A stretch of 64,000 bases of DNA, taken from contig OX597815.1 in assembly GCA_951406725.2 (NCBI GenBank), positions 160,580,001 to 160,644,000 of the forward strand. Direction: 5' to 3'. This document shows, piece after piece, positions 9,901-60,662 of this stretch; within the stretch, counting starts at the first letter, position 1; every line of letters starts with the position of its first letter. The notes beneath the pieces are model-generated. The model saw nothing but the letters and a program-made list of their open reading frames with translations. It had not been told where the DNA came from and made no database searches. A program made the position numbers and the translations under genes. The DNA comes from Octopus vulgaris. Lineage: Eukaryota.

Positions 9901-10060
9901 GAGGACAGAAACTGGTATGGTGTTGCAAAGGAGAAACATAATATATAAAAAAATAAATATTCTATTTTTTGGTGGATAATTAATGTCATTATGGGAATGA
10001 TTATAAAATTTAGTTATGCAGTGAAAGAGAAAAAATAACGAATTCACCTGGCTTTGATTA

Positions 10061-10145
10061 ACTGTAGATGCGTTTCAGAGTTAGATAGATGTGAAAAATG
10101 CAAAAACCACATTTCCACTCTATCATTCTCGCTCTTCAGTACAGT
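10061..10145 (-). ncRNA. Type I hammerhead ribozyme
   Basis: Minus: ACUGUA-CUGAAGA-long stem II-GAAA-CGCA-UC/UACAGU; perfect 6-bp stem I. Confidence 0.8.
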
Positions 10146-10321
10146 ATTTCAAGATTTTTAATTTCTCTTAGCCTACGTGGGTTGTTGAGCATTGTTGTCT
10201 AGGAGATTTTCTTACGGCAGAGAAATAACGAGTTTTAACTGCTATTTCTAAATTTCGGTATGTGGTGAAGCAATATTTTTGTTGAAACCTAATTATAATT
10301 ATACTCATAATTATAAAAATG

Positions 10322-16025: not shown

Positions 16026-16162
16026 TCAAATGACCTTCTTCCAACCCATGGAAAGTGGACGTTAAATGATGATGATGATGATGATGATTTTATATATATA
16101 TATATACACACACATAGATACACACAGACACACACAGACACAGACACACACACACACACACA

Positions 16163-16356
16163 TATTGAGCAAAAGGAGGCAGTCAGAATTTTGGATAATT
16201 CTTTATTAGCACTTTCGTCCATTAACTGAACACGTCCAGGCAAAAATTAAAACCAAAACTATTTTGTTTTAATTTTTGTCTTGAAGAGTTCTGTTAACAA
16301 ATGAAAGCGCTAATAAAGACTTATCCAAAATTCTGATTACTTCCTTTTTCTCAATA
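16163..16356. repeat. Imperfect palindrome, about 90-bp arms, between microsatellites
   Basis: ATTGAG..TCAGAATTTTGGATAA..CTTTATTAGC mirrored by GCTAATAAAG..TTATCCAAAATTCTGA..CTCAAT. Confidence 0.85.
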
Positions 16357-17346
16357 TACAGTATCTGTACACCACTTTAAACACTCTTTACATGCATTTA
16401 AATATATATATATACATGCATATATATACACACATATATACATATATAAATATGTATATATAGATATATATAGATATATATATATATACATATATATACA
16501 CGTATAAATATATATACATATATATATACACATATATACATGTATGCACACACACAGTTTTTGTTTTAAAATTAAAATTAGCTTGCGGTTGCATAAAATT
16601 GAATCACTGGCCATATCCTGTAATTATACTGGTCATGCATTACAATTTCCTTAAGTGTTGGAGCCTGTAACCAGAATATCCTTAAAGTAAGGAATCCTTG
16701 TACTTTCTTCACCAGTCATTGATTTAGTCATTTAATAAATTTATTCATCTACATGTCATTCAGAATATTCTAATCTACTGGTACTTAATTTATATTTAAC
16801 ATAAATACATACATACATACACATACACCTATATATATATATATCTCATATAACATTCTTCAATACACAAATTATTGAATAGTTATTGATCTATATATCT
16901 TTAATTTTACATTAGTGTAAATGTCATTCATGCAACAGTGATTAAATAGAGTCAATAATGTTCCTTTTACTCTTTTGAAATGTGAAAGTATCTATCAATG
17001 GTTTATTAAGTCTTGATATAATTTGATGTACATTTATATTTATGTCATCGGATATATATCAATTTATTTATTATTAGATATACATTGATCTATATATCAG
17101 TCGGTTATTCATTCTAAAAACACTATTTATTCTACCCATTAGTCAGTATGTAATTATATATGTGTGTATGTGAGTGTGTGTATGCATATACACACACACA
17201 ATATAGGTATATTATGTACGTATGCATATATCCACACATAGATCCATACTATATGAGTGTTTGTGTGTGTGTGTGTAAAAATACACACACAGATATATAC
17301 ACACATATATATACATATATATATATAAATATTTTATATATACACA

Positions 17347-23706: not shown

Positions 23707-23764
23707 CAGGGAAAATTTCAATTTAGTATTAAATCAAATTTCCCAATATAAATATATAATATAT

Positions 23765-24060
23765 ATAAATTAGAGAAAAACCACTATTATGTAATTCAAA
23801 CAATGATAGACATAAACCATATCATAAAGAAAAAATAAAATATATTATAAAACATATATCTAGATTACAAAAAGTACCAAAAAATGAATAAACATTATTA
23901 TATATTTATTATTATATACTTATTATATAGTGTTTATTCATTTTTTTGTACTTTTTGTGATCTAGATATATGTTTTATAATATATTTTATTTTTTCTATA
24001 TGATATGGTTTATGTCTATCATTGTTTGAATTACATAATAGTGGTTTTTCTCTAATTTAT
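23765..24060. repeat. Near-perfect palindrome, about 135-bp arms, in (TA)n context
   Basis: ATAAATTAGAGAAAAACCACTATTATGTAATTCAAACAATG... mirrored by ...CATTGTTTGAATTACATAATAGTGGTTTTTCTCTAATTTAT. Confidence 0.95.
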
Positions 24061-24061
24061 G

Positions 24062-24100
<39 letters not shown>

Positions 24101-25664: not shown

Positions 25665-27230
25665 ACCAGAATTTTGCAATAACCAAAGTCTAAGTAAGTA
25701 GGAAGGCCAACAAATCACAAACCCCTTCAGGTAGATGGCCCTGCTTGATCTGTAGAAAAGGCATTGGTAGAAGCTCCATACGATGTACCTGGTGTATACT
25801 ATGGACACATAAAAGGTGCAGCAATATCAAAGGAAGGTTGTGGAGGCACATAGCCTATGGTTAGAGCAGCGGACTCGCAGTCAAGGGATCGTGGGCTCGA
25901 ATCTCAGACCAAGCAATGTGTGTATTTATGAGCGTAAACACCTAAGCTCCACATGGCTCCGGCAGAAGGTAATGGTGAACTTCTGATGACTCTTTCTCCA
26001 CAACTTTCTCTCACTCTTTCCTCCTGCATCTTGCAGCTCATCAGCGATGGACCGGCATTCCATCCAGGAACCTATACACCAAGAAACCAGGAAACCGGCC
26101 CTTATGAGCCAGGCATGGCTCAAGAAGGAACGAACAAAAGGAAGGTTAACCAGGAAGATAGTTTTTGTGTGCGGCAGATGCACATGGGCAATAAACACTG
26201 AAGATGTACAGAAAACAGATTCCATCACATTCCAGGGGATAAAGCTAGAAGTAGTTGATAGCTTCCGCTACCTAGGCGACCAAATCTGTAGTTGGGGTGG
26301 TTGCTCTGAGAGTGTTGCGGTTAGAATAAGAATAACCTGGGCAAAGTTCAGGGAGCTCTTACCTCTGCTGGCAACTAAGGGCCTCTTGCTCAGGATGAAA
26401 AGAAGACCGTGTGATGCATGTGTGCAAACTGTCATGCTACACGACAGTGAAACATGGGACATGACTGCAAATGACATGCATAGGCTTGAAAGAAATGAAG
26501 CTAGTGTGCTCCACTGGATGTGTAATGTCAGTGTACACACACGACAGAGTGTGAGTTAACTGAGAGAAAAGTTAGACATAAGAAGCATCAAATGTAGAGT
26601 GAAAGAGTAACAGCTGCACTGGTATGGTCATGTGTTATGTATGGATGAGGACAGCTGTGTGTGGAAGTGCCACACCCTAACTGTGGAAGGAACCTGTAGA
26701 AGTAGACCCAGAAAGACATGGGATGAGGTGGTGAAGCATGACCCTCAAACACTAGGCCTCACAGAGGCAATGACAGGAGACCAAGACCTTTGGAGATATA
26801 CTGTGATTGTGAAGACCCAGAAACTAAAGGGAAATCGCAGACATGGCCAATGCCAGTGTTGCATGTCTGGCCCATTTAAGAGTACCCTTGATATGTCAGG
26901 CGATATGACATGCTTGAGAAGACCTGTTGAGTCAAGTAAAACCAAAACCAAAATTGTAGCTGTGGCCAGTGCCCTCTGACAGGCTCTTGTGCCAGTGGCA
27001 TATAAAAAGCACTATCTGAACATGATCAATGCCATGCTCACCTGACTGGCTCCTGTGCCAGTGGCATGTAAAAAAACATCCACTACACTCTCAGAGTGGT
27101 TGTTATTAGGAAGGGCATCCAGCTGTAGAAATATTGCCAGATCAGACTGAAGCCTGATGCAGCCAGTGGCTCTCCAGACCTCAGTCAAACCGTCCAACTC
27201 ATGCCAACTAATGTCAAATGATGATGATGA
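25665..27230 (+). mobile_element. RTE LINE 3' portion interrupted by a SINE
   Basis: LEVVDSFRYLGD..RIRITWAKFRELLPLL..LERNE..WYGHV..RPRKTWDEVV; 3'UTR and (GAT)n tail. Confidence 0.9.
25839..26136 (+). mobile_element. tRNA-derived SINE (family C) with 11-bp TSD
   Basis: A-box-like TAGCCTATGG, B-box-like GGCTCGAATCT; flanked by direct repeat AAAGGAAGGTT. Confidence 0.85.
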
Positions 27231-28600: not shown

Positions 28601-28989
28601 AAGAATAGTTTATAATTCTTGAAAAAAGTCTCCAAAATTACATTTATGTATATAAATTGTGAAACAGTATTTATTTACAGTAGGAAAAGTAGAATAAAGG
28701 TTTAAATTTGCATAATCCTTGTATTTAGTGTTTATCTAACAAGTCTTAGGATTTTATAGAAACTTTGGAAATAGTAAAATATGTGATACATAATTTTAGA
28801 TTAAAAAAGAAAAAAAGGCTTTAGCTATTTTGAAGTTATGAAGATGTTTCTATTTCTTCAGGATTCTAATCTGAGGATATTTGCAAATTCTATGAGTCCC
28901 TAGTTTTCAAACTAAATTATTAAAAACTATGAAAATACCATTTATTACATTTATTCATTACTGCAGCACTGTTATTCATTACTACAGCT

Positions 28990-36063: not shown

Positions 36064-36107
<44 letters not shown>

Positions 36108-36391
36108 CAACAATTGAGGGTAAAATTAATTAATTATTAATCAATTTCACCAAGTGTTCAGTATGCAAAGGGACCATTTAAGGCGAATTCAAATTATTAC
36201 ATTATATAAAAGGGCTTAGTAAAATAAATTACTTTGCCGCATACTGAACTCATTAGAAATAGCAGCTAAAAAACTTTTTTAAAGCTATTTCTAATACTTA
36301 AAGAAAATCTCTCTCATATATAGTGTTTGCTTAATTCAACTCACAAAAGTTTGGGGGTAAGGACATCAAAAAATCAAATGCTAAGGTTATT

Positions 36392-36443
36392 TGAGAACGT
36401 ACGTTTCAAGATTAGTCAAAACAACACTTCTATCATCAGCTCA
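36392..36443 (-). ncRNA. Type I hammerhead ribozyme, array unit 1
   Basis: Minus: UGAG-CUGAUGA-uAGAAGU...ACUaaUCUu-GAAA-CGUACG-UU/CUCA. Confidence 0.85.
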
Positions 36444-36935
36444 GAAACTCCTTGGTTTGGATTTGGAAACACTGAAAGTAAGAACATACCCTTTCGAAGA
36501 TCTGCTCGTAACTAACAGTGCCAACAAACTCAAATAAGCAAGCGAAGAATTTCTGTTCTCCCCTTTCCACCAGCGTGGGTTAAAATCATCAAACACTATG
36601 CTTATTTCGGTAAAATCCGAAGCATTAATTAGAGGGAGATTAATTATAATTTCAACAATTGAGGGTAAAATTAATTAATTATTAATCAATTTCACCAAGT
36701 GTTCAGTATGCAAAGGGACCATTTAAGGCGAATTCAAATTATTACATTATATAAAAGGGCTTAGTAAAATAAATTACTTTGCCGCATACTGAACTCATTA
36801 GAAATAGCAGCTAAAAACTTTTTTAAAGCTATTTCTAATACTTAAAGAAAATCTCTCTCATATATAGTGTTTGCTTAATTCAACTCACAAAAGTTTGGGG
36901 GTAAGGACATCAAAAAATCAAATGCTAAGGTTATT

Positions 36936-36987
36936 TGAGAACGTACGTTTCAAGATTAGTCAAAACAACACTTCTATCATCAGCTCA
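36936..36987 (-). ncRNA. Type I hammerhead ribozyme, array unit 2
   Basis: Identical to the unit 1 motif. Confidence 0.85.
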
Positions 36988-37480
36988 GAAACTCCTTGGT
37001 TTGGATTTGGAAACACTGAAAGTAAGAACATACCCTTTCGAAGATCTGCTCGTAACTAACAGTGCCAACAAACTCAAATAAGCAAGCGAAGAATTTCTGT
37101 TCTCCCCTTTCCACCAGCGTGGGTTAAAATCATCAAACACTATGCTTATTTCGGTAAAATCCGAAGCATTAAGTAGAGGGAGATTAATTATAATTTCAAC
37201 AATTGAGGGTAAAATTAATTAATTATTAATCAATTTCACCAAGTGTTCAGTATGCAAAGGGACCATTTAAGGCGAATTCAAATTATTACATTATATAAAA
37301 GGGCTTAGTAAAATAAATTACTTTGCCGCATACTGAACTCATTAGAAATAGCAGCTAAAAAACTTTTTTAAAGCTATTTCTAATACTTAAAGAAAATCTC
37401 TCTCATATATAGTGTTTGCTTAATTCAACTCACAAAAGTTTGGGGGTAAGGACATCAAAAAATCAAATGCTAAGGTTATT

Positions 37481-37532
37481 TGAGAACGTACGTTTCAAGA
37501 TTAGTCAAAACAACACTTCTATCATCAGCTCA
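37481..37532 (-). ncRNA. Type I hammerhead ribozyme, array unit 3
   Basis: Identical to the unit 1 motif. Confidence 0.85.
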
Positions 37533-38025
37533 GAAACTCCTTGGTTTGGATTTGGAAACACTGAAAGTAAGAACATACCCTTTCGAAGATCTGCTCGTAA
37601 CTAACAGTGCCAACAAACTCAAATAAGCAAGCGAAGAATTTCTGTTCTCCCCTTTCCACCAGCGTGGGTTAAAATCATCAAACACTATGCTTATTTCGGT
37701 AAAATCCGAAGCATTAATTAGAGGGAGATTAATTATAATTTCAACAATTGAGGGTAAAATTAATTAATTATTAATCAATTTCACCAAGTGTTCAGTATGC
37801 AAAGGGACCATTTAAGGCGAATTCAAATTATTACATTATATAAAAGGGCTTAGTAAAATAAATTACTTTGCCGCATACTGAACTCATTAGAAATAGCAGC
37901 TAAAAAACTTTTTTAAAGCTATTTCTAATACTTAAAGAAAATCTCTCTCATATATAGTGTTTGCTTAATTCAACTCACAAAAGTTTGGGGGTAAGGACAT
38001 CAAAAAATCAAATGCTAAGGTTATT

Positions 38026-38077
38026 TGAGAACGTACGTTTCAAGATTAGTCAAAACAACACTTCTATCATCAGCTCA
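38026..38077 (-). ncRNA. Type I hammerhead ribozyme, array unit 4
   Basis: Identical to the unit 1 motif. Confidence 0.85.
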
Positions 38078-38329
38078 GAAACTCCTTGGTTTGGATTTGG
38101 AAACACTGAAAGTAAGAACATACCCTTTCGAAGATCTGCTCAAATAACCTTAGCATTTGATTTTTTGATGTCCTTACCCCCAAACTTTTGTGAGTTGAAT
38201 TAAGCAAACACTATATATGAGAGAGATTTTCTTTAAGTATTAGAAATAGCTTTAAAAAAGTTTTTTAGCTGCTATTTCTAATGAGTTCAGTATGCGGCAA
38301 AGTAATTTATTTTACTAAGCCCTTTTATA

Positions 38330-38372
<43 letters not shown>

Positions 38373-38478
38373 AACACTATATATATATTTTAAAGAAACA
38401 CTCATTATCACTATGGGCTCCGTGTAGGAAGTCATCTATAAGTTTTTGTGCATCTTGATGCTGACATAAGTTCCTTAC

Positions 38479-38559
38479 TTTTCCTGATGAGAAGGCGACA
38501 TAATGCACCCCTTATTCCTTCGAAATTAGGAATATGCAGCCTTCGAAACATGTCGAAAA
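38479..38559 (+). ncRNA. Type I hammerhead ribozyme
   Basis: UUUUC-CUGAUGA-GAAGGC[42-nt insert with hairpin]GCCUUC-GAAA-CAUG-UC/GAAAA; AATAAA immediately after. Confidence 0.9.
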
Positions 38560-38610
38560 TAAAATAAAGGAATTTTTGTTAATTCGTCGTTCAACTCCAT
38601 TCTTTCATTC

Positions 38611-38665
<55 letters not shown>

Positions 38666-38819
38666 CATATTAGAGGGAAACCACTATGTGGACACCCATA
38701 TGCTAGTAATAGATCCGCTATGGTCTTACCACTAAGAAATGTTTTCAAGAAAAATTTAGCAAAACAACCAAAACGTAATCGAGCAATACAAAAGAAAAAG
38801 CAATAAAAATATGGATTAT

Positions 38820-38891
38820 TCGCATACATGTTTCACTATTAGCATATTACGTAATTTTACTTACATAAATGTCCGTAGATCATCGGTGCGA
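38820..38891 (-). ncRNA. Hammerhead motif (CCGAUGA variant), left arm of palindrome
   Basis: Reverse complement of the 39106-39177 motif. Confidence 0.7.
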
Positions 38892-39105
38892 TCGTCCAGA
38901 TGAATATAAGTTGCAGGACTGCATACTAGGACGTCCGCACAAAGTCATATCTGTAAATAGTTCTACTCATTACACTCGTGGTTACTATTTCAGACGAGGA
39001 CGTTTGAAATAGTAACCACGAGTGCAATGGGTAGAACTATTTACAGATCTGATTTTGTGCGGACGTCCGAGTATGCAGTCCTGCAACTTATATTCATCTG
39101 GACGG

Positions 39106-39177
39106 TCGCACCGATGATCTACGGACATTTATGTAAGTAAAATTACGTAATATGCTAATAGTGAAACATGTATGCGA
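39106..39177 (+). ncRNA. Hammerhead motif (CCGAUGA variant), right arm of palindrome
   Basis: UCGCA-CCGAUGA-uCUA..UUAUGUAA/UUACGUAA..UAGu-GAAA-CAUG-UA/UGCGA. Confidence 0.7.
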
Positions 39178-39299
39178 ATAATCCATATTTTTATTGCTTT
39201 TTCTTTTGTATTGCTTGATTACGTTTTGGTTGTTTTGCTAAAACTTTTATGGTGCTCTTCATATCTGTTTTTATATTGTGTTGAGAACATTTTAAATAC

Positions 39300-40936: not shown

Positions 40937-40982
40937 GACACCTGATGAAGGCTGGAGGGTATATCAGCCGAAAAGTTGTGTT
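40937..40982 (+). ncRNA. Minimal type I hammerhead motif
   Basis: GACAC-CUGAUGA-a-GGCUG[10 nt]CAGCC-GAAA-AG-UU/GUGUU; stem III palindrome ACGU probably mutated to AAGU. Confidence 0.75.
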
Positions 40983-46783: not shown

Positions 46784-46921
46784 AGAAAGAAAGAGAGAGA
46801 GAGGAAGAGAGAGAGAGAGAGAGAATGTGTGTTTATATGTGTGCGTGTGCGTGTGTGGGTGTGTGTAAAAGAATGAAAATGAGATGACAAAGAAATAAGC
46901 GATTACCCCATCAACTTCATT

Positions 46922-47002
46922 AGCTTACAACTGTTTCTACTATAAGATGCAGTGGATTCATATTTGAGTGTCTTAGTAACACCATATAGCTTCATCGGAG
47001 CC
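46922..47002 (-). ncRNA. Hammerhead motif, left arm
   Basis: Minus: GGCU-CCGAUGA-a-GCUAUA...UAUAGU-a-GAAA-CAGUUG-UA/AGCU. Confidence 0.7.
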
Positions 47003-47012
47003 TCATATTCGA

Positions 47013-47093
47013 GGCTCTGATGAAGCTATAAGGTGTTATTCAGACACTCAAATATGAATCCACTGCATCTTATAATAGAAACAGTCATAAGCT
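47013..47093 (+). ncRNA. Hammerhead motif, right arm (stem III decayed)
   Basis: GGCU-CUGAUGA-a-GCUAUAAGGUG...CAUCUUAUAAU-a-GAAA-CAGUCA-UA/AGCU. Confidence 0.6.
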
Positions 47094-47359
47094 AATGCAG
47101 TTCATCAAATAATCGTTTATTTTTTTGCCATCTCATTCTCTTATTACTATTCTATACTAGTCTAACACTTCGTTCTAAAGCGTATGTATATTGAGTTCTA
47201 CACCAGGTCATTAGTCTCGCAATGCCTAGGCGACCAATGCTATGTTCTGACAGAATAAGTACCAAACTTTTAAAAATTAGGTACTGGAGTCGATTTGTTC
47301 GACTGAAATCTTTCAAGGCAATGCTCCTACACGGCCGAGGCTCAATAACTGAAACAAGA

Positions 47360-56121: not shown

Positions 56122-56452
56122 CTGCCAGCTCACCGCCTTGTGCGTTTTAGTGGGGGCTAAACAAAGAGGGGACAAACAAGGACAGGCAAAGGGATTAAGT
56201 CGATTACATCGATCCCAGTGTGTAACTGGTACTTATTTAATCGAGCCCGAAAGGATGAAAGGCAAAGTTGACTTCAGCGGAATTTGAACTCAGAACGTAA
56301 CGGCGGACGAAATACCTATTTGTTTACTACCCTTTCGGGGTCGATTAAATAAGTACCAGTTACGCACTGGGGTAGATATAATCGACTTAATCCGGTTGTC
56401 TGCCCTTGTTTGTCCTCTCTGTGTTTAGCTCCTTGTGGGTAGTAAAGAAATA
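56122..56452. mobile_element. Two Nin-domain SINE pieces in inverted orientation
   Basis: About 56150-56255 is the reverse complement of about 56331-56435. Confidence 0.8.
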
Positions 56453-58256
56453 GGTAGTGGTGGACAAACACAGACACAAAATAACACATACGCACACATA
56501 TATAGACACATTCACGCCCGCATATACGACTAGCTTCATTCAGTTTCTGTCTACCTAATTCACTCACGCTACAGTAGAAGACACTTGCCCGAGGTGCAAC
56601 GCAGTGGGACTGAACCCGATAGCATGTGGTTTGGAAGCAAATTTCTCACTACTCAGCCAAGCCTGTTGTTTTCTTCTTTTTCTTCTGTTGATACATGTAT
56701 TAAGATTGTTGTTCCCATTGACACCATCAATACTTATATTGTAATTCCATACTCCCTCACCCCTCCTGTTTCATTTGTACGTCTGCATACAATGATTTAT
56801 TACGTGCACGTACGTACGCAAGTGAATGCGTGCGCGCACTTATTTGCTTTGCATGGACGAACAAATCACATGACTTTAAATTCGTATAACAATTTCGCAC
56901 ATAAACATAACGCAACGCATTCTAAAGATATCTAATCGAATTAATCGATCCCAGCGCCTGTTGATTGATTACCTGCAGTGAATTAAGTCGCTGTTGTTTA
57001 TTTCAGTGATCTCTCAATGATAAAAAGTGAAGCAGACCTGGAAGAATTTGTGTAAAGAACTTAAAGCAAAATCAGTTGAATATCGAAAATTAATTCTTCC
57101 AGTGTAGCAATGTCAAATTGCCTTCGAATTCACTTTACTTCCTGCTTAACATGAAATCGTGTACAGGTTGCTGTGAGGTTGGATGAAATCGATTTCCAGC
57201 TAATCCAAGGTGATAACAGGAAGGTAATTTTATTTGGAACCCATACGATTTCAGATTATCCCCTCAAAACATTTATTTATTTGTTTATCGCATTTTATTA
57301 CCTTCACTGCCGCCATCGTCATATTAGGAGTATATAAAAAATCAGGTTCATGTTGGTTACCCTTACGGCCGAGTAACGGAGACTAATATGAAATCAATTT
57401 CAGATTATCGAGAGGCAAATGGAAATACGCAGTGCTTGAAGACGTTAATCCCGAGATCATATTGGTTCGTTCACTGCACGGTATTTGTTTAGCGTTTAAT
57501 AAATATATATATAAGTTGTCACACAGTATCGTTTGACTTTTTTTTTTCCAAAGCAATATTAATGTGTCCGCTTTCAGTTACATGAAATATATTTCTATAT
57601 ATTTTAAATCTTTTGATACCAAGCCACCTGAGACCACTTCTAGTTTTGTGTTATGCCGATGGTTCCAACCTTTTCACAGTGGTTTCCAACCCTTTTATTT
57701 AAATGAGTTTTCTCGCAAACCCATTTTAATATGCTTATCTTTATATGTGTATAAATATATATATATATGGATCTTTTCCTTTTGGACGCACTTTTCAACA
57801 CAATTTCTAGTTAACTAAACACCTTAAAACTTCGTATATTGGTAGAATGTGTCAAAATAAAACATTCTTTTGTCTTGGCTTTCTCGAGAAAATTGTAATT
57901 TGTTTGTTTAACGTAGTTTAATTTTTCGAATTTTAACCACGTGGATATAAGAGAAAAATGTGAATTCTACTTTCGCAGCATATTTCTGCGAGTGTGGACG
58001 GATATTAGTTAAGCGAAGTCGCAGCTCGTTTACATATTCGTGGACACTCGTATATTTATCCTTTGGAATACCGACGCTGATGAGGGCAATAGGTAATTAC
58101 GATCCTCTATCGGTTAACTACAAGTTTTAATTCATTTTCTTTCTTTTGCTAGCCTATAAGGTGTTTTTTCTCGGAGAATTTATGGTAGTTATAGTATCTT
58201 TTGACGTTTATTTTTCCAAGCCCTTGTTATAATTATGTATATGATTATAAATTATT

Positions 58257-58313
<57 letters not shown>

Positions 58314-58552
58314 TAAAAGGTTGAATGCGAGTTCGTCCTTTAATTGGAGTAATTTCCAAAGATTTCAAACGTTGTTTCTTCATACTTTACTTTCGAATTT
58401 ACGAGTGCAAGTTATTGTAGATATGAAAACTTTTATAGAAATACTCAGTATATGATTTAACTTATTAAACACAGTTTAACAAATTCATTCATATTTATGT
58501 AAATAGAAAATATTAGATGTTAAAATGGATTATAATTTTTATTACTCGTATC

Positions 58553-58633
58553 GCTATACAGTTTGTTTCGTACAAAAGAACAGAAATATTCATAATAGAA
58601 AATCGGAGTTGTCAAATTGTACTCGTCAGTAGC
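58553..58633 (-). ncRNA. Type I hammerhead ribozyme
   Basis: Minus: GCUA-CUGACGA-GUACAA...UUGUAC-GAAA-CAAACUG-UA/UAGC; inverted 3' half at about 58732-58787. Confidence 0.85.
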
Positions 58634-58785
58634 TCGGTTAAACCCCATCTCAAAAAAAAAAAAAAAACGTTAGAAGCACATAGATTTTCTATTCGTAATC
58701 ATGTTGTAATGTGTTGTTTGTTCTTGGAGTCATTATGAATATCTCTGTCCTTTTGTACGAAACCAATTGTATAGCAACATGAGTA

Positions 58786-59631
58786 ATATATATATAAAGC
58801 TGAAGTTGTCTGTCTGTGTGTGTGTGTGTGGCAGGTTTGGTAGCCTTCAACTAACACTATCTCCTCTGAGCCCCTGCGACGCAAGTTTACCAAAATTGAG
58901 AGTATGATAGAAGGCTTGCTCTTCATTCCGTAAATGAAGAAAAAAATTCAAATCGGACCAAGTTTAGACCAAAAATTATTTACATCAGAAAGGTGCTTTT
59001 TTTCTATGAAAATCCCTATTTTTTAAAAGATTTTTTGACTGCTGTGTCGCTATTTTTCGGTATATTTCAACCAGAAAAAATACGATCTGTATGCTGTTAC
59101 AATCTACGATGTTCAAGTCAAACTTTCAATGGGTATGTTTTGATTTTACAGATTTTTTTAGTTATACGTGATGTAAAATAGTCGATTTTATTCATTTTTA
59201 CAGGTACAACTACGATTCATGTTGCCCACTCGTTTGGCTTCAAAATAACATTTTTTGCTTTTTTTGTAACCACAAACTGTTCTTACTAACGTTTTGGATT
59301 TTCCTGTACTTTTTCTTAATGAATAGTGTTGCAGTGTTAACTTCTTAATAGATTTTCAGTGCAATTCGAAATTTGAGCTTCATTTTGCTTTAAATCTACG
59401 GTAATTTTTTCTCTCCATAATGTTAATAGAAGGGATATTAGCCAACAATACTAACAATTGAAGTCGGCATTACACATTTGTAGCACATTCAGAGAAAACT
59501 CGAGCATCGCCACACTATACTTTTATTCATAGATTGAAACCATGTCAAAACTTCGTTAACGTGACATCAAAGTCTGCTGGTTTAAGCGCAACTAAAAAAC
59601 AAACCCGAGCGACGCCGGGCTATACTGCTAG
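58786..59631 (+). mobile_element. Non-autonomous Helitron
   Basis: 5' TATATATAAAGCTGAAGTTGTCTGTCTG(TG)n; 3' hairpin CCCG-agcgacgc-CGGG then CTAG|T. Confidence 0.75.
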
Positions 59632-60055
59632 TATAGTATAGTATAGTTGAATTAGTTTACGGACTCCCAGTACTACGTTTGCGGACCTCAGGTCAAATAT
59701 GCAAATTATAAAGATAATTAATTGCTTTACTAAACAGTGTTGTAAAGGTGAAAAAATAAATTTGGGAAAAAAATACACGCCAAAACTAATTAATAAAGGA
59801 TAATTAGGGAAGGATTGACACAAAATAATAATTTTTTCTGTCTCTTTTTTTCTGATAAATGCATCTTAATAAGTGAGAAGAATTGCATATATCTGAACTA
59901 TTTCAAAGAAAAGCATAAATTTAATGTTTAAAATAGCTTTAACCAAGGAATGAGATCCAACATTTCTTCACTTTTTCCAGAATTTCTTCTCTTTATTTTT
60001 TTTTTTTGCGAAATACGGAGTTTATGATTCATGTGTGAGTGTGTGTTCTTGATAC

Positions 60056-60530
60056 TCGTTTAGAACAAGTAGTTTTACACCAATTACACTATTTTTTCTT
60101 AGTTTAAAGGCCGTGGACTGAAGATGTGAAATTTCCGAAGCCTCTCCCCCACCCCCCTTTCGCGAGCGCGCATTTTTTTCATGATAGTCGTTTAGAGCAA
60201 GTTGTTTTACACCTATTACGCTGTTTTTGTTTTTGTTTTTGTGCCCGGTTCAGACGCTTTCGGAAATTCCCGATATAAATATTCCGAAGCCTCTCCCCCC
60301 ACCTCTCTTTCTCGAGAGCGCATTTTTTTTTTCATATTCGTTTAGAGCAAGTTGTTTTACACATATTACACTATTTTTGTTTTGTTTTGGTGCCCGGGTC
60401 AGCCCCTCAGACGCTTTCGGAACTTCCCGATGTGAATTTTCCGAGGCCTCTCCCCCACCCCCCTTTCGCGTGCGCGAATTTTTTTTTCATATTCGTTCAT
60501 AGGAAGTTGTTTTACACCTATTACACACAT
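60056..60530. repeat. Diverged tandem repeat, 130-155-bp period, 3+ copies
   Basis: Recurring CGTTTAGAGCAAGTTGTTTTACACC.ATTAC and TTCCGAAGCCTCTCCCCC..GCGC. Confidence 0.85.
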
Positions 60531-60662
60531 TTTTTTTTTGATTTTCTGATATTTGTTACGCCCTATATTAACCCAAAATAGTTACATAACACGTGATTCG
60601 AGTTTACAGATTTTTCGAGAAAATTTTTATGACCTTAATTCAAATCAAGGCAATGAAAGAAC

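Follow-up and report, generated by a model that had tools for sequence, protein, structure and literature searches.

An inverted arm that begins at a predicted hammerhead cleavage site in a tandem element of Octopus vulgaris

Where a tandem array with a predicted self-cleaving motif turns back on itself at the very base at which its RNA would be cut, the question arises of whether the cut RNA end placed the junction there or whether a short microhomology happens to abut the site. Such a junction lies in the genome of Octopus vulgaris (GenBank assembly GCA_951406725.2, contig OX597815.1), within a 64-kb window (64,000 nt, positions 160,580,001 to 160,644,000 of the forward strand) that was analysed as a whole and is AT-rich and rich in microsatellites; coordinates below are those of the window. 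As far as the accessible text of the relevant papers goes, both in vivo hammerhead cutting during transposition and the origin of head-to-head ends in Penelope-like elements (PLEs) are called open (PMC8557442, PMC3846280, PMC11167929).

Results

A Young Array with a Predicted Hammerhead in Every Unit

The array and the copy of the motif closest to the junction are as follows.

36100-38141, hammerhead sense on the minus strand: tandem array of a 545-nt unit in 3.75 copies, non-coding, between two TA runs
38026-38077, minus strand: predicted type I minimal hammerhead of copy 4, with stem I UGAG/CUCA, core CUGAUGA (38073-38067), GAAA and a cut between 38030 and 38029

Between copies 1 and 3 there is no difference, all 408 nt of copy 4 agree with copy 1, and copy 2 (544 nt) departs from copies 1 and 3 by one indel and one substitution, so that only 2 differences are found among the copies in all. 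Given this near identity, the array is young. Its GC content is 0.30-0.32 (about 31%, i.e. under 50%), and no open reading frame of at least 120 aa is present over 36100-38333, the array and inverted arm together. The 545-nt unit pairs with itself far better than shuffled versions do (z of -6.48, about -6.5; matched by 0/100 shuffles), with a circular minimum free energy of -139.4 kcal/mol, and it contains only two TATAAT words, at RNA 190 and 293.

The hammerhead motif is repeated along the array, with further cores at 37528, 36983 and 36439, and all four motif positions (4/4) carry minus-strand UGAG-CUGAUGA-25 nt-GAAACGUACGUU-CUCA. By its sequence this arrangement is compatible with a minimal hammerhead of type I whose stem I has 4 bp and whose cleavage is predicted to follow GUU. 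Because none of 5000 dinucleotide-shuffled units gave a motif under the same relaxed rule, its presence is beyond chance. In copy 4 stem II is weak and closed by U.U, and helix III (AACGUACGUU) is palindromic; this 10-nt palindrome (RNA 536-545) has a calculated dimer duplex energy of -9.8 to -11.6 kcal/mol, which would make it suited to dimers. Placing the cut one base later, after UUC, was rejected by inspection, with C15.2 left unpaired.

The motif is nevertheless atypical. It is without the G10.1-C11.1 pair, which is highly conserved in PLE minimal hammerheads (PMC4209133), and without a helix II of 7-8 bp, having instead the U.U followed by 3 bp. No Rfam match in the window reached the gathering score, and the 8 weaker matches include no hammerhead. 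The hammerhead-compatible fold costs 10.2 kcal/mol, compared with 0.4, 2.5, 2.8 and 4.6 kcal/mol for four other motifs in the window. As masking of the ribozyme in monomers is expected of such elements (PMC4209133), this high cost lowers the predicted activity without excluding it.

The Inverted Arm Starts at the Predicted Cut

At its right-hand end the array gives way to an inverted copy of part of itself, and the features that bear on the join are listed here.

38139-38333, plus strand: inverted terminal arm of 195 nt, equal to RNA +1 to +195 after the predicted cut
38139-38141: CTC/GAG microhomology at the inversion junction, 3 nt common to the array end and the arm
37835-37846, plus strand: TATA-like TATATAAAAGGG at the arm-end position, facing antisense to the hammerhead (putative, from sequence only)
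37618-37626, plus strand: in copy 3, a 9-nt perfect complement of the first nine bases of the cut product (RNA 404-412)

An earlier note on this DNA had described an array that breaks off at 38141 and continues inverted over 38139-38333 with a CTC microhomology, and this description is borne out by a reverse-complement match of 195/195. The arm is the exact reverse complement of 37835-38029 in copy 4 (100% identical); it also matches copies 1 and 3 at 195/195 positions and differs from copy 2 by one indel. The array follows its earlier copies as far as 38141, and the CTC overlap makes the join ambiguous over 4 positions; with a small loop in between, another 4 bp (TAAC/GTTA) could form. The template site on the minus strand reads ...GAAACGTACGTT|CTCAAATAACC, and the maximal extent of the arm starts at base +1 after the predicted GUU|CUC cut (N17 = 38030). 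The same note had equated the start of the arm with the 5' end of the predicted minus-strand 3' cleavage product, and at this maximal extent, +1 after GUU, it was right. The exact geometry of the junction at the predicted cut is thus confirmed, the position of the cut being a prediction and the junction being known from the assembled sequence alone.

Two other possible features of the junction were evaluated. A degraded second copy of stem I arm and core on the array side was rejected, since 64/2000 shuffles and 47/1073 window pairs scored equally well. The signal for an extended, old inverted repeat that begins at the cut was marginal, with a score of 66.5 against 68 for the best of 300 shuffles. 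The copy-4 equivalent of the 9-nt complement would begin 24 nt past the start of the junction CTC.

Insertion into a TA Run in a Twin-priming Layout

Both outer ends of the element lie in repeats of a single type.

36064-36104, plus strand: 41-nt left repeat, TAAT(TA)nA, of the probable target-site duplication; the 5 nt at its right-hand end (TATAA) also form the end of the element
38330-38368, plus strand: right copy of the probable target-site duplication, TAAT(TA)nA, 39 nt, its first 4 nt (TAAT) common to the outer end of the arm

The element is inserted in a (TA)n run, with microhomologies of 5 nt on the left, 4 nt on the right and 3 nt at the inversion junction. The 39-41-nt repeats are probably a target-site duplication, most of which is microsatellite and whose non-repeat letters coincide with the microhomologies at the ends. 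The two outer ends both fall at the only TATAAT words of the unit, the ends themselves being at RNA 195 and 296, 101 nt apart.

This is also where an assembly or sequencing fold-back artefact can be judged. An arm that is 100% identical to the array is what such an artefact might give, and tandem and inverted PLE structures are described as troubling assemblies (PMC8557442). However, the arm stops partway through the unit, with a TA run and unique sequence beyond it, the flanks together complete one TAAT(TA)nA site with microhomology at each end, and there is no mirrored flank sequence. We regard an artefact as very improbable.

The layout is that of twin priming and points to the hammerhead strand as the template, since inward priming from both target ends makes both new strands plus-sense and so requires the minus (motif) strand; agreement of this strand with the motif is a 1-in-2 check. 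As the arm is identical to copies 1, 3 and 4, twin priming and fold-back are not separable by sequence.

How Unlikely the Coincidence Is

The chance that a junction falls at the cut was assessed against 4718 possible inversion junctions with microhomology of at least 3 nt. An exact start at the cut is found in 6 of these (0.13%); the ambiguity window contains the cut on the arm side in 29 (0.61%) and on either side in 57 (1.2%); with arms of up to 195 nt, 6/1811 (0.33%) start exactly at the cut. By duplex energy (-3.7 kcal/mol) the observed junction ranks 1392/4718, and homology-weighted nulls give a probability of 0.14-0.69% (about 0.7%). Homology alone therefore does not single out the junction, given this rank and weighted nulls that stay below 1%. 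We estimate that counting the two outer ends as extra chances would roughly double the chance figures. All of these figures describe a single locus (n = 1) that was selected for the coincidence out of ∼250,000 scanned windows, and this after-the-fact choice is a larger discount than the count of outer ends.

How the Junction May Have Formed

We read the locus as a single recent insertion into a TA run, that of a non-coding tandem element of retrozyme-like kind, likely made by twin priming. Within that event, we put at about even the chance that synthesis of the second cDNA ended by run-off at a 5' end left by the ribozyme, after which this cDNA annealed to the first. A Penelope-type reverse transcriptase/endonuclease supplied in trans would nick the TA run on both strands, ∼40 nt apart. 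The left 3' end would prime at RNA 296, copy 3.75 minus-strand units and halt near 434, and the first cDNA would pass four cut sites on a circle or an uncut multimer. The right 3' end would prime at RNA 195 and copy 195 nt to +1, where it would halt because the hammerhead-cut template ends there. The cDNA ends ...CTC-3' and ...GAG-3' would then pair and prime the second strands. The array and its arm, joined through CTC, the repeated TA-run flanks, the outer overlaps of 5 and 4 nt and the arm start at the predicted cut are all read directly in the sequence; nicking, priming, cleavage and run-off are the steps that we infer. The bases of the arm are kept across the small junction loop, which would be expected if the GAG-ending cDNA was the extended strand, a weak indication.

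This route has precedents. Ribozyme cuts set the 5' junctions of R2 (PMC3774820) and adjoin the target-site duplications of Perere-3 (PMC8501958), and L1 twin priming is described as finishing by micro-complementary annealing of the two cDNAs (PMC2912911; 10.1101/2024.08.27.596794). Cut linear monomers are abundant where retrozymes have been studied, and retrozyme RNAs of the axolotl are linear and circular at ∼50% each (PMC7229834). The earlier note had concluded that the cleaved RNA end defined a template switch. The coincidence on which it drew is real, but run-off followed by 3-bp annealing of a separately primed cDNA fits better, and the event is better described as run-off and joining than as a template switch in the strict sense.

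Several observations weigh against a junction defined by the cut. Four cut sites were copied intact in the same insertion, so a circle or a mostly uncut multimer is needed as template. If both cDNAs came from a single RNA, the gap between them would be 238 nt, compared with a median of 14.5 bp in L1 twin priming (10.1101/2024.08.27.596794). Only 24 nt past the join lies a site that could pair perfectly with the run-off end over 9 bp; it went unused, and hence the first cDNA must have halted just before it. Published work on PLEs points to cleavage being dispensable: in an anole PLE, hammerhead mutants left the insertion product unchanged and no RNA-seq reads started at the cut (PMC11167929). 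In addition, 8/9 Xenopus dimers were without cleavage (10.64898/2026.07.22.740005).

The ordinary alternative is a Penelope-type inverted terminus made by twin priming or snap-back on uncut RNA or cDNA, in which a 3-nt microhomology abuts the cut by coincidence; it includes self-priming of an antisense transcript, as proposed for head-to-head PLE ends (PMC3846280). Inverted 5'-truncated copies are routine in PLEs (PMC8557442; PMC3846280), and the TATA-like word at the arm-end position faces the antisense direction. Plus-strand GAG words number only 4 per unit, and 5/10 CTC sites have the GAG at the cut as their nearest partner upstream (∼0.9% of all stops). The weakness of the motif, the in-window controls (0/4, see below) and the large look-elsewhere effect favour coincidence as well. 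Against it, the per-locus chance is ∼1% or less under each uniform or weighted null tried, and in DNA folds of the first cDNA at three lengths the GAG at 38027-38029 was outside the top three partners of the CTC end, so that a snap-back favoured by cDNA folding was left unsupported. We think a coincidence quite possible, although we lean against it.

In a further alternative, RNA structure on an uncut template would have guided a strand switch at +1; the switch might have used the 9-nt inverted repeat, with 24 nt later deleted between two CTC words. Stem I starts, by definition, at base +1, and the sequence there is complementary to three stretches of the unit: RNA 1-30 can pair with 385-412 (-15.7 kcal/mol), 470-501 (-7.8 kcal/mol) and 415-436 (-5.3 kcal/mol), and RNA 1-9 is paired with 404-412 at ∼0.39 in the circular fold. 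The 9-nt repeat is within the top 25 of the 4718 junctions and only 24 nt from the observed join, a nearness that hints at such a route, and a diverged relative at ∼10,010-10,300, in which the shared segment is opposite to its hammerhead, hints at older flips near the motif. Yet this route needs two events in an array whose copies show only 2 differences, the observed pairing is unremarkable (-3.7 kcal/mol, rank 1392), and what looks like a decayed stem I arm at the junction is non-significant. We judge it improbable, and return to the reading in which the second cDNA ran off a cut end. That the hammerhead cut in vivo, as the earlier note had it, gains from the exact +1 start and from the hammerhead strand as template; it is held back by a single locus chosen post hoc, by a motif that is atypical and costly to fold, and by the 0/4 controls.

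Other Elements in the Window

The four other hammerhead elements of the window were examined for breaks at their own cuts, and none has one (0/4). This is a weak control, as these elements are old and of different families, and a copy truncated at the cut, being short, would be easy to miss. Stand-alone post-cut segments of the four elements were also looked for across the window, with only one weak 25-nt match (E of 0.04) and a local 16-nt palindrome as the outcome.

Beside the array, at 38478-38560 (plus strand), is a second, unrelated minimal hammerhead with an intact G10.1-C11.1 pair, a GUC triplet and a 5-bp stem I; it lies in a ∼210-nt fragment between TA runs, and the sequence runs ∼55 nt beyond its cut. 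The hammerhead at 40938-40982 (plus strand) is also minimal, with a bulged base after the core, a 5-bp stem II and a GUU triplet, and GUU is thus not unique to the array in this genome.

An older hammerhead element at ∼10010-10310 (minus strand, core 10139, 6-bp stem I) has an upstream part that is homologous to the array unit, with a score of 75 against a shuffle maximum of 62 and 75% identity over 75 nt. The shared segment has the opposite orientation relative to the hammerhead of that element, which carries TATAAT at both ends and is also without a clean G10.1-C11.1 pair. A possible relative at 57760-58260 was non-significant (49 against a shuffle maximum of 60), and a motif at 28871 was dropped as doubtful, having an A-T-rich 4-bp stem I and a background of 0.25 per window.

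The element at 58530-58797 (core 58629, minus strand) has a head-to-head inverted partial copy, 85% identical over 67 nt. Its GUA cut site is kept in both arms, which end ∼16 nt after it in GAGTAAT. This is the only other inverted hammerhead element of the window, and with its cut retained in both arms the mechanism proposed for the array junction cannot account for inverted Penelope termini in general.

Repeats of other kinds are also present. A long palindrome at 38750-39247, 400 nt from the array, has 247-nt arms that are 96% complementary and a 4-nt spacer, and no hammerhead motif was found in it; further diverged palindromes lie at 23752-24072, 46875-47140, 56153-56432 and 16162-16357. 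A degenerate tandem repeat of ∼150 nt occupies 60046-60548 (2.8 copies, 83% matches), and 25990-26979 (plus strand) holds two broken frames that we take to resemble the C-terminal part of a non-LTR retrotransposon protein.

Discussion

The element may behave as non-LTR retrozymes do, with a Penelope-like element to mobilise it, and by its sequence it has the features of the retrozyme group except for the typical size. It resembles the non-LTR retrozymes of animals (PMC7229834; 10.64898/2026.07.22.740005) in its non-coding, low-GC tandem units with a type I hammerhead motif each, its strongly self-paired monomer and its long, probable target-site duplication. The 545-nt unit compares with 150-450 bp for most retrozyme repeats and 150 to >1000 nt for circles (PMC7229834). 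The array differs from retrozymes in its atypical stem II and in the terminal inverted arm, a structure not described in the accessible text on them, and cleavage and expression are here predictions only. With PLE minimal hammerheads it shares the CUGANGA and GAAA cores, a helix I of 4-5 bp and a palindromic helix III, whereas their G10.1-C11.1 pair and long 7-8 bp helix II (PMC4209133) are missing; unlike an autonomous Penelope-like element, it has no reverse transcriptase or GIY-YIG reading frame.

Inverted termini and (TA)n targeting are already known (PMC8557442; PMC6765202; PMC4209133). The inverted 5'-truncated termini of endonuclease-bearing PLEs (PMC8557442; PMC3846280) are like the present one in the head-to-head 5' copy, the (TA)n target, the palindromic helix III and two different 3' start points. 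The 3' ends there are separated by a 30-40-nt tail, compared with 101 nt here, and the inner end at the predicted cut is a feature unreported in the accessible text on those termini. L1 twin priming (PMC2912911; 10.1101/2024.08.27.596794) is similar in its target-site duplication (a probable one here), in microhomology at the target and inversion junctions, and in the pairing of a longer first cDNA with a shorter inverted second one. The array insertion differs from it in having no poly(A), a tandem template, a 238-nt gap if one RNA was used, and a second cDNA that would end at the physical end of the RNA. R2, with its HDV-like ribozyme, and Perere-3, with a twister variant, share a self-cleavage site that is also a genomic insertion boundary. 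In those cases, however, element and target DNA meet at the boundary, an outer 5' junction found in many copies and with tested ribozymes, whereas here it is an internal inversion junction in one copy with a predicted hammerhead.

In the literature text covered, mostly from non-subscription papers, we found neither an inversion junction at a hammerhead cut nor an application of twin priming to PLEs or retrozymes. An exact search with the cut-site region was negative in metagenome, prokaryote-genome and viral contigs. Scans for the motif with gaps matched 7 viral loci and 1 metagenome locus, which were set aside with flanks unlike stem I of the unit.

On one copy, a cut-defined junction is a lead, not a result. 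The locus does predict that breakpoints should pile up at +1. Should the junction recur in other copies, cleavage in vivo could be read from genome sequence at no extra cost, and twin priming would offer a concrete way in which head-to-head inverted ends arise. A broader proposal is that hammerhead-cut ends routinely terminate second cDNAs in this retrozyme-like family, that its inverted termini form a countable record of cleavage in vivo by an atypical hammerhead of dimer type, and that the two cDNAs of one insertion can have different templates, one circular or an uncut multimer, the other linear and cut; as a whole we hold this to be somewhat unlikely. Were that proposal true, the opposite orientation of the segment in the relative at 10 kb would go back to an earlier flip of this kind, one that built the present unit.
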